Source: a virus (Duplodnaviria; Caudoviricetes). Taken from it: a DNA stretch of 56,086 nt. Positions 18,152 to 21,527 of the stretch are shown here, piece by piece. Every line of letters begins with the position of its first letter. Positions within the stretch are counted from its first letter, which is position 1. The notes below the pieces were generated by a model that was not told the origin of the DNA, searched no databases, and worked only from the letters and a program-made list of their open reading frames with translations. The translations under genes were made by a program, and so were the position numbers. The stretch is taken from positions 1 through 56,086 of the IMG/VR virus record IMGVR_UViG_3300010396_000051. The stretch is one strand, 5' to 3'.

Positions 18152-18829
18152 TTAAACCCCCTGGTTGCCGACACGGATTCTCACCGCATCCACCCAGACC
18201 ACACAGCCGTTTGCAGTCGATGGAACCGTTGCCGCCACGCCAAGCGTAGTAGCGTCCACCGTGTTCGAGTTGTTCGACGTGAACCCGGAATTGGTCGAGC
18301 CGTTGTAGCTGACCGAGTTTCCGATTGTGGTTCCGGTTGCCGTCGCAATGTTGACCTTGACGCGCCCGCCGCCGACAAAGATGAAGCACCAGTTGCCGGG
18401 AGTCGGAGCCGTCGCCACGCCGCCAACCGTCGCCGGGTTGATGAACACACCCGCCGCGAGAGAGGCTGCCGACTGATTCGTCACCTGGTCGTAAGTCGTG
18501 ACGCTCAGATTGTCGTAATCGGACTCAGGAATGGATCCAACCGTCGCGCCGGAGTCAAGCCGGATGTACGCGGCCATGCCTGCCAGTGCATTCGCGGCTG
18601 TCGCGCCGGAGTCGAGAAGCACCCACTGGTACGCACCGTCGAAGAGAGTTGTGCCGGGAGCCGCGAGACTCTGCGCTTCCGAGGTGCCAAGCTGCACCAC
18701 TTTCCCCGGTGCAAGGCCGCTCGGATACACGTTGCCGTAGGCGTCCCCCTGTCCTGAAGGAGACGTGGAGTTGCACGTGTTAAGAAAACCGGGTACAAAA
18801 ACTCCCGCTGCTGTCGGTAAATTCGGCAT
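18152..18829 (-). CDS. Putative capsid cement/decoration protein
   Basis: Ala/Gly/Thr-rich beta protein directly after the capsid gene; AGGAG RBS. Confidence 0.55.
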   Translation of the reverse strand: MPNLPTAAGVFVPGFLNTCNSTSPSGQGDAYGNVYPSGLAPGKVVQLGTSEAQSLAAPGTTLFDGAYQWVLLDSGATAANALAGMAAYIRLDSGATVGSIPESDYDNLSVTTYDQVTNQSAASLAAGVFINPATVGGVATAPTPGNWCFIFVGGGRVKVNIATATGTTIGNSVSYNGSTNSGFTSNNSNTVDATTLGVAATVPSTANGCVVWVDAVRIRVGNQGV

Positions 18830-18859: not shown

Positions 18860-20077
18860 CTATCCGCGAATTCCGTAACCCTGGAAGTGACGCCGCGGTG
18901 TTGGCGTGTAGAAATTGAGCGCGTGCCGCAAGAACTGCGTGTAAAGCGTCGGGTTCTGCGGATAGCGAATCGGGTCCATCATGTGATAGTTGAATGTCCC
19001 CGTGTTGGCCGGACGATACTTCCACGAATCGACGTCCAGACCGAAGATTGGTTCTCCGACAACGATGGTGTTCAATCCACCCGTCAGTGATGCAGTCGCG
19101 TTCGATGTGAACCCGAGGTTCGGGAGCAGCGAGGTCGCCTGGTTCACAAGCATGGCCTGCGTCAGCGTGAACTGGCCGGTCTGAATCGCGCCCGGTGCCG
19201 GAGCAGTGCCATCCGGCGACTGGAAGAGGTTTGCGATCGAAGGCTTCGGGCTGGACGACGGAACGATGTCATCCTCGAAGATCGTCGCATCCTCAAACTT
19301 GATGCCGGACCAGTTGATGTTCTGGTCATCGCGTGTCTCGTACCGCTGTTGGCGCTGGAATGCCGAAGCAATCGCGGAGTACCCGATCCACGAGGTCACC
19401 ATCAGGTCAACGCGGCCGATGGTGCTCATGTAGAGTTTGAGTAATTCCTGATAGTTCGGAGGAGCCGGGTTGCCGCTGGCGTCACCCAACCACACCGGAG
19501 TCGAGTTCATCGAAGCGGCGATGGCGCCGTTGCGTGTCTGCGAGGAGTACGTCGGGAAGACGTTGCCATCCCATGAGGGAGTTACGCCGTCATTCACCGC
19601 TTCCGAGATGCCGTTGATTGAGGCGAGACGGTCGTCCGAAACGCCTGTGCCTGCCGCCTGCCCGTGCCGGAACATATCGCCTTCCAACTGGAAGTCAATG
19701 CCTTCCTGCATCTGGTTGAGGTAGGCTTCGAGGATCGAGACGCGAGCTTCGGGGCCAGTGTTCTGCACCTCCAGCGAAAACTCTTCCACGAGGATGTGCT
19801 TCTCGTAGAGCTTTGGCTGGAAGAGGCCGGCAGTAATCATCTGCACGCGGTTGACCGAGACATCCTGGCCGGGGAAGATTGCCCCGCCCTGTGCGCCTTG
19901 GTACAACTGCGGGATCTGCATCGCCGCACCGCCGCCGAACGGGTCATACGCACCCGAGGCACGCATACGCCGCTGAAACGGGGTCGCGATGTAAGAATTT
20001 TGGAAGATTAAGCCGTCAATAATCTCATTAACGGTGACTGCCGGTACCTCAGGAAAAAGTGGTCCGAATGCGGGAAT
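18860..20077 (-). CDS. Major capsid protein (HK97 fold); true start unresolved, frame open 37+ codons upstream of ATG 19966 without a canonical start
   Basis: Position between scaffold and decoration genes; PAFGPLFPEVPAVTVNEIIDGLIFQNSYIATPFQRRMRASG...FGGG..QIP; SINGISEAV; IFEDDIVP. Confidence 0.8.
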   Translation of the reverse strand: MPAFGPLFPEVPAVTVNEIIDGLIFQNSYIATPFQRRMRASGAYDPFGGGAAMQIPQLYQGAQGGAIFPGQDVSVNRVQMITAGLFQPKLYEKHILVEEFSLEVQNTGPEARVSILEAYLNQMQEGIDFQLEGDMFRHGQAAGTGVSDDRLASINGISEAVNDGVTPSWDGNVFPTYSSQTRNGAIAASMNSTPVWLGDASGNPAPPNYQELLKLYMSTIGRVDLMVTSWIGYSAIASAFQRQQRYETRDDQNINWSGIKFEDATIFEDDIVPSSSPKPSIANLFQSPDGTAPAPGAIQTGQFTLTQAMLVNQATSLLPNLGFTSNATASLTGGLNTIVVGEPIFGLDVDSWKYRPANTGTFNYHMMDPIRYPQNPTLYTQFLRHALNFYTPTPRRHFQGYGIRG

Positions 20078-20693
20078 AGCACACCCCCAAAACTACTGAA
20101 CTGTCAACGTCTGTTCGGTAGCCTTTCTTGGCCGATAGCCAAATTTTTTACGCTGAAACTCGCGATCCTTTTGCCGGTTATGTTCGAGATGGAGCTTGCG
20201 ATTGTGCTCCTTGCTCTCCAGATACTTTTCGTGAGCGTCCATCGTGGCCCGCTTCGCAATCCGTTCTGGCGTGAGCTTCGGAGAAACGCGAGCTATCCTG
20301 TTCGACAACTTCAGCGAAACCTTGTCGATTTGCCCCTTACGGCGACTTGAAAGGTAGGGGTATATCGATTTCAAAAACACTCTCGCTCGGTCACCGCTTA
20401 TCTGCCATCTGTAGACAGGGTTGTTCCACGAGTCGTAGCCTTCAAAGGCTTCACTCGGACCAGAGGTGTTGACGCGAAAAGTAATGCTACCGCCCCATAG
20501 ATCACGAGCTTTGAATAGCAACTCGGGGTCTTTTTGGACCACATGGACAGATACGACGTTGTATCCCTTGCGCCCGCAGACGCTTCCCTCTCCGTCGTAG
20601 AAGCCAGCAAAGAACGCGGCGTCCAGTTCGCTCGGAGTGAGCGTCGGTTCAAGACTCTGACCGGGTTTTAGGGGCTCGTATGCCATGTTTCCC
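20072..20693 (-). mobile_element. 622-nt endonuclease-containing insert with complementary termini
   Basis: 20693-20665 pairs with 20093-20072 (22 bp including 3 G-U) on the sense strand. Confidence 0.6.
20093..20686 (-). CDS. LAGLIDADG homing endonuclease (single motif, 197 aa)
   Basis: FFAGFYDGEGSV; YRWQISG; FLKSIYPYL. Confidence 0.9.
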   Translation of the reverse strand: MAYEPLKPGQSLEPTLTPSELDAAFFAGFYDGEGSVCGRKGYNVVSVHVVQKDPELLFKARDLWGGSITFRVNTSGPSEAFEGYDSWNNPVYRWQISGDRARVFLKSIYPYLSSRRKGQIDKVSLKLSNRIARVSPKLTPERIAKRATMDAHEKYLESKEHNRKLHLEHNRQKDREFQRKKFGYRPRKATEQTLTVQ

Positions 20694-21527
20694 TTATGCT
20701 GCTGTTGCTGCACGAACCTTCGCCACAGCGTTCTCACGCCATGAGCGATTTGCCTCCTGCTTGGACTTCGGAGCCTTCCAAGGTTCCTTGCCCGCGTCAG
20801 TGGCTTTGTACGTCGAAAATCTGCTCGGAACACCGGAGCGCACGTTGGGGTTCGCGCCCTGCGATTCGTTCCACTTCTTCTTCTCTGCGGCCACGGCAGC
20901 GTCGATGACCTTCTGCTGTTCCGCCTTCTGGAGTTCTTCGCGCTTGGCCGGGACGTTGTGCTTCCGCTCCCACGCCTGCTGTAAAGTAAATGATTTGTTG
21001 CCGAGAGTGTGTTCGCGGGTCACGTCGTCAACGAGTGCCTGCGTTTCGCCCAGGGGCGAACCGAACAACCGGAAGTGCTCCGCGTTGAGGTCGTTGAGCG
21101 CAATGATAGTGCGGGACTGTCTGTTTTCAAATCGGCCAAAATCGTCGCGGGAGATGGAATTGGGGTCCGGAGAGCCGGGAGCGCGGGGCGGTTCGTTGCT
21201 CGCAGCCGGGGGAGTCACTGCCTCAGGAACGATTCCATACTCACGCGCTTTTTCGAGTTCCGCTTTCAGTCGGGCATTCTCGCCAACAGCGTCGATGGCT
21301 TCCTTTGTAACCCTGCGGAGTTCAGGAACGACCTGATTCCTGTGGTTGTTCTCGTTGATGAGGAGATTTTCCTCTGCGGCCTTCCGCGCCGCTTCTGCGG
21401 CAGAGACGGATGCCTGAATCTTCTGGAGCATCGTGACAAACTTCGCACTGCCCATCACAGATTCAAATGCTTTGAGTTCGTCGTCCGTGTAACCTGACTG
21501 TTGCTTGAGCCATTCGAGTTCTGTCAT
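20694..21527 (-). CDS. Putative capsid scaffolding protein
   Basis: Charged coiled-coil protein upstream of the capsid gene; GGAG RBS. Confidence 0.65.
   Translation of the reverse strand: MTELEWLKQQSGYTDDELKAFESVMGSAKFVTMLQKIQASVSAAEAARKAAEENLLINENNHRNQVVPELRRVTKEAIDAVGENARLKAELEKAREYGIVPEAVTPPAASNEPPRAPGSPDPNSISRDDFGRFENRQSRTIIALNDLNAEHFRLFGSPLGETQALVDDVTREHTLGNKSFTLQQAWERKHNVPAKREELQKAEQQKVIDAAVAAEKKKWNESQGANPNVRSGVPSRFSTYKATDAGKEPWKAPKSKQEANRSWRENAVAKVRAATAA

Follow-up and report, generated by a model that had tools for sequence, protein, structure and literature searches.

A LAGLIDADG homing endonuclease gene within the first codons of a phage major capsid gene and a probable AUU start for the capsid protein

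The window analysed here, a stretch of 56,086 bases, is the whole of the Caudoviricetes virus record IMGVR_UViG_3300010396_000051 from a soil metagenome, which carries direct terminal repeats and has a CheckV completeness estimate of 77. On its minus strand, where all the features of the junction described below lie, a portal-sized open reading frame (ORF) of 707 aa is followed by a small ORF, an ORF at the position of a scaffold gene, an ORF for a LAGLIDADG endonuclease and the frame of the major capsid protein. Judged by homology and by its site, the insert is a free-standing LAGLIDADG homing endonuclease gene that lies within the first codons of the major capsid gene. The capsid gene has no canonical start codon in its proper place, and we propose that its translation most likely begins at an AUU (20077-20075) led by a Shine-Dalgarno (SD) sequence, to give a protein of 405 aa with the N-terminus (M)PAFGPLFPE. 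As the AUU lies only 15 nt behind the endonuclease stop codon, initiation there is probably helped by ribosomes that have just terminated at that stop.

Endonuclease and capsid share one frame in the window. After the endonuclease TAG the capsid frame reads FWGCAIPAFGPLFPEVPAVTVNEIIDGLIFQNSYIATPFQRRM, and the first ATG, GTG or TTG that it meets is the ATG at 19966; the initial annotation had reported that no such codon occurs between the two, and direct reading together with a mechanical check gave the same result. The extended frame matched the major head protein family phrog_9953 in PHROG (E 2.4e-8), and since its residue 27 aligned to profile position 22, the start of the capsid protein must lie near residue 5-6 of the extended frame. 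A search of a protein collection over lengths of 225-718 aa found 127 capsid homologs, of which the 120 listed are 229-443 aa long and the close ones 404-407 aa. Among the 19 homologs retrieved, 17 start 2-6 residues ahead of a PLFPE motif (MPTPFSPLFPE, MPAFGPLFPE in P0031, MAGFGPLFPE and MADPLFPE are examples), the remaining two being one called from an internal MRASGAY and one with a 37-aa extension. In the window ATT-CCC-GCA-TTC-GGA reads I-P-A-F-G against M-P-A-F-G of P0031, which puts the ATT at the place of the family's ATG, and of the five codons that separate the TAG (20095-20093) from the conserved N-terminus AUU is the only near-cognate one. In a stretch of 36 codons that begins at PLFPE and ends shortly after M43, the window differs from nine relatives at 6-12 first, 5-7 second and 21-27 third codon positions (7/5/23 against locus L020 and 6/5/24 against L001, for example); as this stretch varies mostly at third positions, the capsid codons upstream of ATG 19966 are translated and selected as coding. 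Based on phrog_9953, homolog lengths and this codon-position bias, the major capsid gene is re-annotated as 18860..20077, 405 aa plus a TAG stop.

In the protein collection the calls of several homologs begin at internal codons: P0035 (368 aa, 6 member sequences), P0067 (353 aa), P0072 (353 aa), P0080 (368 aa) and P0081 (364 aa). This is the pattern that would be expected of a gene caller limited to ATG, GTG and TTG when it meets a non-canonical start.

The AUU is preceded at a working distance of 4 nt by the sequence GGGGGUG (20088-20082), which aligns with GGAGGTG in the same layout at the related loci L020 and L022. Pairing of GGGGGTG with a generic anti-SD motif is predicted at -9.7 kcal/mol, close to the -9.3 kcal/mol of the ordinary capsid leader of L001, a relative that has no insert, and GGAG or AGGAG is found 4-7 nt ahead of the starts of several neighbouring structural genes. 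In a study of E. coli reporters, AUG and GUG yielded six to eight times the product of UUG and AUU, AUU being about equal to UUG, and where a stop and a start were 20 nt apart with an SD, about 40% of the translation of the second cistron was via reinitiation (PMC3592434). Other ways into the capsid frame were tried and rejected. The out-of-frame GTGs at 20084-20082 and 20082-20080, combined with a frameshift at CUUUUUC, open frames that on direct reading stop after 11 and 24 codons, and the CUUUUUC heptamer is no standard slippery site and is missing from L020.

The endonuclease gene (20093..20686; ATG 20686-20684, TAG 20095-20093) encodes 197 aa. Its product matched LAGLIDADG_3 in Pfam (E 1.3e-6, 29 bits with a cut-off of 22.5) and phrog_5046 in PHROG (E 1.8e-18), and a profile of 17 homologs, searched against PDB, found I-HjeMI (3.9e-5) and I-AniI (8.7e-4). 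Within the motif FFAGFYDGEGS, residues G32, E33 and G34 are invariant in all 17 sequences, the protein is conserved to its C-terminus in the 17 homologs, and 591 of the ~606 inserted bases code for it. Differences between the endonucleases of the window and L020 fall mostly on third codon positions (60/46/115), which indicates that the gene is under purifying selection. The insert thus has two of the properties of a free-standing homing endonuclease gene, a LAGLIDADG domain with a conserved acidic residue in its motif and presence or absence at one site among collinear relatives. Intein junctions need Cys, Ser or Thr splice residues, and an intein was rejected on direct reading, as a TAG ends the ORF, the relatives have their ORFs in other frames, and the ORF ends in TVQ or LVN with no Cys, Ser or Thr at the junctions.

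How the cassette took over the capsid start can be read from junctions that lack the insert, L001, L002 and L005-L010 among others. Compared from the end of the scaffold gene up to and including SD-ATG-GCT-TT, the flanks of the insert-bearing L022 and the insert-less L006 have 53 of 55 bases in common. Past this point L022 enters the endonuclease ORF (MAFWRKGDSL...); the likeness returns at TTG-GCA-TTT-GGC-CC, after the endonuclease stop and GAGGTGTGCT. It follows from this comparison that the endonuclease uses the ancestral SD, ATG and first codons of the capsid gene, and that the cassette brings at its 3' end a new SD and a new start, followed by a repeat of the first codons. In the window a remnant of the ancestral capsid ribosome-binding site (AAGGGAAAC, 20687..20695) now serves the endonuclease ATG. 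By direct reading TAAGGGAAAC-ATG-GCA of the window matches TAAGGAGAAACACCA-ATG-GCA of L001, the pairwise alignment there being gapped and weak, and pairing of this leader is predicted at -5.3 kcal/mol with the generic anti-SD motif, which may not be the host's. The N-terminus of the endonuclease, MAYEPLKPG, resembles capsid AFGPLFPE at the nucleotide level, and by eye several of its homologs open with capsid-like residues (MPQDPLY-WKYG, MPVDPLF-WKYG, MAF-W and MPF-W) ahead of a conserved W-K-x-G-D-S-L-E-P.

The related loci were taken from one metagenome scan (the best 80 of 597 stretches) and several viral-contig scans, with duplicates removed, and at least 29 distinct scaffold-endonuclease-capsid junctions are among the loci listed. 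At 25 of these 29 the capsid has its own ATG, the endonucleases being 30-48% identical to that of the window and the capsids mostly ~30%. The other four, namely the window and three loci with 54-61% identical endonucleases, have non-ATG starts (ATT, ATC, TTG and TTG). In the window the endonuclease stop is followed as TAG-TTTTGGGGGTGTGCT, with the capsid start ATT; L020 reads TAA-CTTGGAGGTGTGCT-ATC-CCA-GCC-TTT-GGC, with GGAGGTGTGCT joined to ATC, and L022 reads TAG-GAGGTGTGCT-TTG-GCA-TTT-GGC, with GGAGGTGTGCT joined to TTG. The sequence GG(G/A)GGTGTGCT is common to these three, aligned column for column and immediately ahead of the ATT, ATC or TTG, and its pairing energy, -9.7 kcal/mol in the window, is -10.6 and -11.5 kcal/mol in L020 and L022 with the same generic motif. 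The fourth locus, seen as L018, L019 and L021, reads TAA-ATGG-TTG-ATT-CCA-TTG-GCC-TTC-GAC and has a TTG at the place of the window's ATT, with two TTG candidates and no SD. Endonuclease and capsid frames coincide in the window only, one of the four compact loci. In viral-contig scans that used the endonuclease alone or the 17-sequence profile no match exceeded 48% identity, and a scan of a genome collection found only endonucleases 27-39% identical, in unrelated metagenome-assembled genomes.

In the window, L020 and L019 the stops and starts lie close together along the chain. The window has 7 nt from scaffold stop to endonuclease start and 15 nt from endonuclease stop to AUU; in L020 the chain continues through a TGATG overlap, and in L019 through TGA-t-ATG and TAA plus 4 nt. 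At L018, L019 and L021 the scaffold stop and the endonuclease ATG are 1 nt apart and an out-of-frame ATG stands right after the endonuclease TAA, an arrangement that looks like a fully coupled three-gene chain.

Based on these comparisons we propose that the late mRNA would be a tight chain of scaffold, endonuclease and capsid cistrons. The endonuclease would initiate on the former leader of the capsid gene, which in the window has the weaker form AAGGGA and a spacer of 3 nt, and the 3' end of the cassette would bring a replacement initiation region for the capsid gene, in which GGGGGUG and a spacer of 4 nt lead to a start codon and the first codons. At the AUU, read as fMet behind a full-strength SD, capsid synthesis would be initiated by ribosomes of two origins, free ones from solution and others that have just terminated 15 nt upstream at the endonuclease stop.

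Several observations weigh against an SD-led AUU start. AUU is a weak codon for the most abundant protein of the virion, and as the phage is uncultured we infer its use from comparison. The fold prediction buries both the SD and the AUU in base pairs, with a probability of being unpaired of 0.01. The anti-SD motif was a generic one, and the pairing energies may not fit the host. L018, L019 and L021 have no recognisable SD (-0.9 and -2.2 kcal/mol), so that SD-led initiation cannot be the whole story there. The compact arrangement is found in four distinct loci only, whose endonucleases form one clade, and the association with non-ATG starts may rest on few events. Finally, the separate Logan assembly X1, which agrees with the window as described next, may be the source sample and thus not independent.

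If the true or ancestral codon were ATG, the ATT would be either an assembly error or the mark of a dead variant of a defective genome. The record was indeed assembled from a metagenome, its completeness estimate is 77, and the comparison was made at the level of contigs; nevertheless we consider an error or defect very unlikely. X1, the product of an independent assembler, consists of one 55,992-nt contig with a word depth of 14.2 and shows 0 differences from the window and 0 gaps over 19800-20900, so that the check for an ATG-to-ATT error suggested in the initial annotation returned at contig level the same ATT and no indel. As L020, another contig, has ATC at the equivalent position behind the same SD, the ATT is no isolated oddity, which argues against a simple ATG-to-ATT error. 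The purifying selection on the upstream capsid codons, the homologs called from internal codons (P0035, P0067, P0072, P0080 and P0081) and the direct terminal repeats of the record count against it as well.

The initial annotation had also offered two recoding events in place of a new start: a ribosomal bypass of ~630 nt (here ~627 nt), from the GCA-UAA of the scaffold gene or the AUG-GCA of the endonuclease to the GCA at 20071-20069, and read-through of the amber TAG of the endonuclease. The matched GCA codons, the stop after the first of them, the helix that juxtaposes the two sites and the common frame of endonuclease and capsid would all suit such events. In the known bypass the gap is 50 nt long and untranslated, the take-off codon forms part of a local stem-loop and is followed by a slow codon, and the nascent peptide provides a signal (bioRxiv 10.1101/2022.08.31.505936). 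Here the gap is more than ten times as long and is a conserved and selected ORF of 197 aa with its own AUG 7 nt past the stop. The helix begins only at 20693 and leaves out the take-off GCA (20699-20697). The insert-less L006 also has Ala codons at the scaffold end and at capsid codon 2 (GCA-GCG-TAA ... ATG-GCT), and therefore the codon match is no peculiarity of the insert; near the capsid start L020 (AAT-TGA) and L019 (CAC-TGA), two of the three related loci, lack a codon that would match. Scaffold C-termini differ among the relatives, and no capsid homolog of fusion length is among the 120 listed. As for read-through, endonuclease and capsid are in different frames at three related loci, and the capsid gene itself ends with a TAG where its homologs end. 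Both events thus appear extremely improbable, and the claim of a 630-nt hop has been removed as unsupported. Removal of the insert at the RNA level, by a group I or group II intron or by a new kind of splicing that joins AUG or AUG-GCA to the capsid codons, is just as improbable. The helix would bring the two junctions together, and AUG-GCA joined to UUC-GGA would encode MAFGPLF, an N-terminus known in relatives such as L006; however, an Rfam scan of the sense strand over 19800-20900, with E up to 10, found no family, and the only two matches on the other strand of this region were chance-level miRNA and lncRNA models. With 591 of ~606 inserted bases being conserved, selected coding sequence there is no space for a ribozyme core, and L022 and L019, which have ordinary TTG starts after the cassette, need no splicing. 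The joined form was not seen among the contigs compared, which are DNA contigs only and include X2, two short contigs that reach neither junction. The lack of an intron family match and the coding of the insert throughout agree with the earlier opinion that a standard group I or II intron does not fit.

The junctions of the insert can pair with each other over a long range, as the initial annotation had noticed. The 5' arm of this helix (20665..20693) spans the SD remnant, the ATG and codons 1-7 of the endonuclease, and the 3' arm (20072..20093) takes in the final base of the endonuclease TAG as well as the capsid SD and the AUU. GGGA 20693-20690 pairs with UCCC 20075-20072, AUGGCAUA 20686-20679 with UGUGCUAU 20083-20076, and CCCCUAAAAC 20674-20665 with GUUUUGGGGG 20093-20084, to form 22 pairs, three of them G-U, with bulges of 3 nt and 4 nt on the 5' strand and a closed loop of ~570 nt. 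Both reading and folding reproduce this helix, which starts directly after the scaffold stop; it is found in the minimum free energy (MFE) and centroid folds of the 686-nt RNA, with a duplex energy of -30.0 kcal/mol and 32 junction-to-junction pairs (ensemble expectation 27.4). A duplex as good was obtained with 29 of 1000 dinucleotide shuffles of the 5' arm, 35 of 1000 of the 3' arm and 2 of 300 mononucleotide shuffles. The 3' arm pairs at least equally with 263 of the 11208 other windows of 46 nt on the same strand, and among 60 random genome fragments of 691 nt there are 2 that equal the junction in the number of end-to-end pairs. The helix is thus a modest outlier, at about 1-3% by four nulls and with a significance that is post hoc, and the stability of the whole 686-nt fold is unremarkable (z -0.60). 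The proposed check of its conservation went against it: the junction duplexes of L020 (-19.5 kcal/mol) and L022 (-17.5 kcal/mol) are equalled by 173 and 227 of 300 shuffles, respectively, and L020, L022 and L019 have 13, 3 and 7 junction pairs in their MFE folds, 13 or more being found in 16 of 60 random fragments. RNA structures limit the translation of T4 endonucleases (PMC2988022). We regard the helix here as a lineage-specific feature that may limit translation of the endonuclease, may couple capsid initiation to translation upstream, or may be incidental.

If the helix did gate the capsid start, the SD and the AUU would stay locked until termination at the scaffold stop or early translation of the endonuclease opened them, and capsid synthesis would depend on upstream translation. 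Such gating would refine, and is compatible with, initiation at the AUU; we consider it possible and rather doubtful. The place of the helix in both folds and in the upper 1-3% of the four nulls speaks for it, as does its beginning right after the scaffold stop while holding both start codons and the capsid SD. In silico, the probability that SD and AUU are unpaired is 0.01 in the free RNA, and the AUU reaches 0.72-0.81 when a ribosome-sized stretch at the scaffold stop is held open. The short stop-start distances along the whole chain in the window, L020 and L019 also suit it, and L019, with no SD, fits reinitiation. On the other hand, holding the whole 5' arm open frees the AUU and raises the probability for SD and AUU only to 0.32-0.33, with the G-run of the SD still paired elsewhere (unpaired at most 0.10), shuffles do as well as the junction duplexes of L020 and L022, L019 has its 7 MFE junction pairs, covariation is uncountable from so few sequences, and the significance of the helix is post hoc. 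Of the option in the initial annotation in which the capsid starts at AUU behind GGGGGU and is opened only by endonuclease translation, the start itself is supported by the homolog N-termini, the SD spacing and the AUC and UUG of relatives. The exclusive opening would be a further supposition: the helix is not conserved in the three related loci, and in silico the G-run stays paired when the 5' arm is open.

Free-standing endonuclease genes are known from T4-like phages, where seg and mob genes occur and segD lies between genes 23 and 24 (PMC2988022). The present gene resembles those described there in lying outside any intron or intein, between or beside essential late genes, and in being patchy among relatives, as well as in its short or overlapping stop-start junctions that suggest coupling and in an RNA structure over the endonuclease ribosome-binding site (PMC2988022). 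Unlike them it belongs to the LAGLIDADG family rather than GIY-YIG or HNH, and it begins on the SD and ATG of its host gene and not in neutral spacer, leaving that gene with a non-AUG replacement start. The closest resemblance is to the MobA element, which combines an HNH endonuclease, a replacement 'HomR' region and the gene 60 bypass cassette (bioRxiv 10.1101/2022.08.31.505936). In both, a cassette inside an essential gene carries replacement host codons and a translational device that keeps the host protein intact while the target site is disrupted. The device differs, a new SD with an AUU, AUC or UUG start here as against a 50-nt bypass there, and so does the extent, as only the first 2-3 codons are duplicated here and the host gene does not come to encode two separate functional polypeptides. 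An AUU initiator behind an SD is also found in infC and pcnB, infC lying in addition a few nt past the stop of the preceding cistron; these genes are low-abundance regulators in which the weak codon serves autoregulation or limited expression, whereas here it would serve a major capsid gene (PMC3592434). Among the papers shown by a full-text search on phage LAGLIDADG homing endonucleases together with major capsid, no title or abstract presents this arrangement, and among those listed for AUU start codons in phages none presents a capsid gene.

In the RNA phage MS2 long-distance base pairing couples the translation of neighbouring cistrons. Like there, the predicted helix pairs a downstream ribosome-binding site with an upstream translated segment, so that upstream translation would open it; unlike there, the pairing is predicted, occurs in one lineage with no conservation in three relatives, and takes in the start of the upstream gene as well.

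The gene upstream of the endonuclease (20694..21527, 277 aa) ends with GCA (20699-20697) and TAA (20696-20694). Searches of Pfam and PHROG gave no match for it, and in relatives tblastn places ORFs 44-55% identical to it at the equivalent site upstream of the capsid gene, so we call it a scaffold gene by position alone. With the endonuclease ATG corrected to 20686-20684, the layout of genes in the initial annotation stands. The gene after the capsid gene (18152-18829, minus strand) encodes 225 aa rich in Gly, Ala, Thr and Ser, with AGGAG 6 nt ahead of its ATG.

At the 25 further listed junctions (L003, L017, L024-L055 and L100) endonucleases of this family, 30-48% identical, are found between scaffold and capsid gene, and the site appears to be an old landing place in wide use. 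The endonuclease match lies upstream of the scaffold gene instead in L013 and L014. At the loci with 39-48% identical endonucleases a short hairpin across the endonuclease stop (CCGCTGATT-A/C-A-A/C-TAGCGG or GAGCTGATTAACTAGCTC) lies just upstream of the capsid ATG (L003/L023 2960-2980, L024 3056-3076, L025 700-720). In three distant loci (L017 3068-3136, L038 1155-1250 and L041 958-1140) the capsid frame is open from an ATG that lies well ahead of the conserved N-terminus, which would be an extension of 23-60 residues, partly hydrophobic, or else a small extra ORF.

As AUU and AUC are not considered by standard gene callers, these shorten the present capsid by 42 residues, and truncation probably also affects those other family members whose calls begin at internal codons. 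The homing endonuclease captures the start of the most highly expressed late gene, and its host gene is given a second-hand and weaker one, a parallel to the MobA and gene 60 cassette by a far simpler device. The four natural variants, with ATT, ATC, TTG with SD and TTG without SD, make a compact system in which the capsid yield from AUU can be compared, and the set could test whether selfish elements resist deletion via translational coupling. One idea, which we put forward tentatively and hold to be improbable on the present evidence, is that the cassette holds capsid synthesis hostage to itself: the clade's only capsid start would be a weak AUU, AUC or UUG 4-15 nt behind the endonuclease stop, with no SD in one relative and with the 22-bp helix as an additional lock in the window, and the capsid would be made solely by ribosomes that pass through the scaffold and then the endonuclease gene. 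A related idea is that the target of the enzyme itself includes the ancestral start region and that ATG is avoided for this reason, a non-ATG start being the price of self-immunity. If either were true, a selfish gene would have become entrenched in an essential late operon by a new route.

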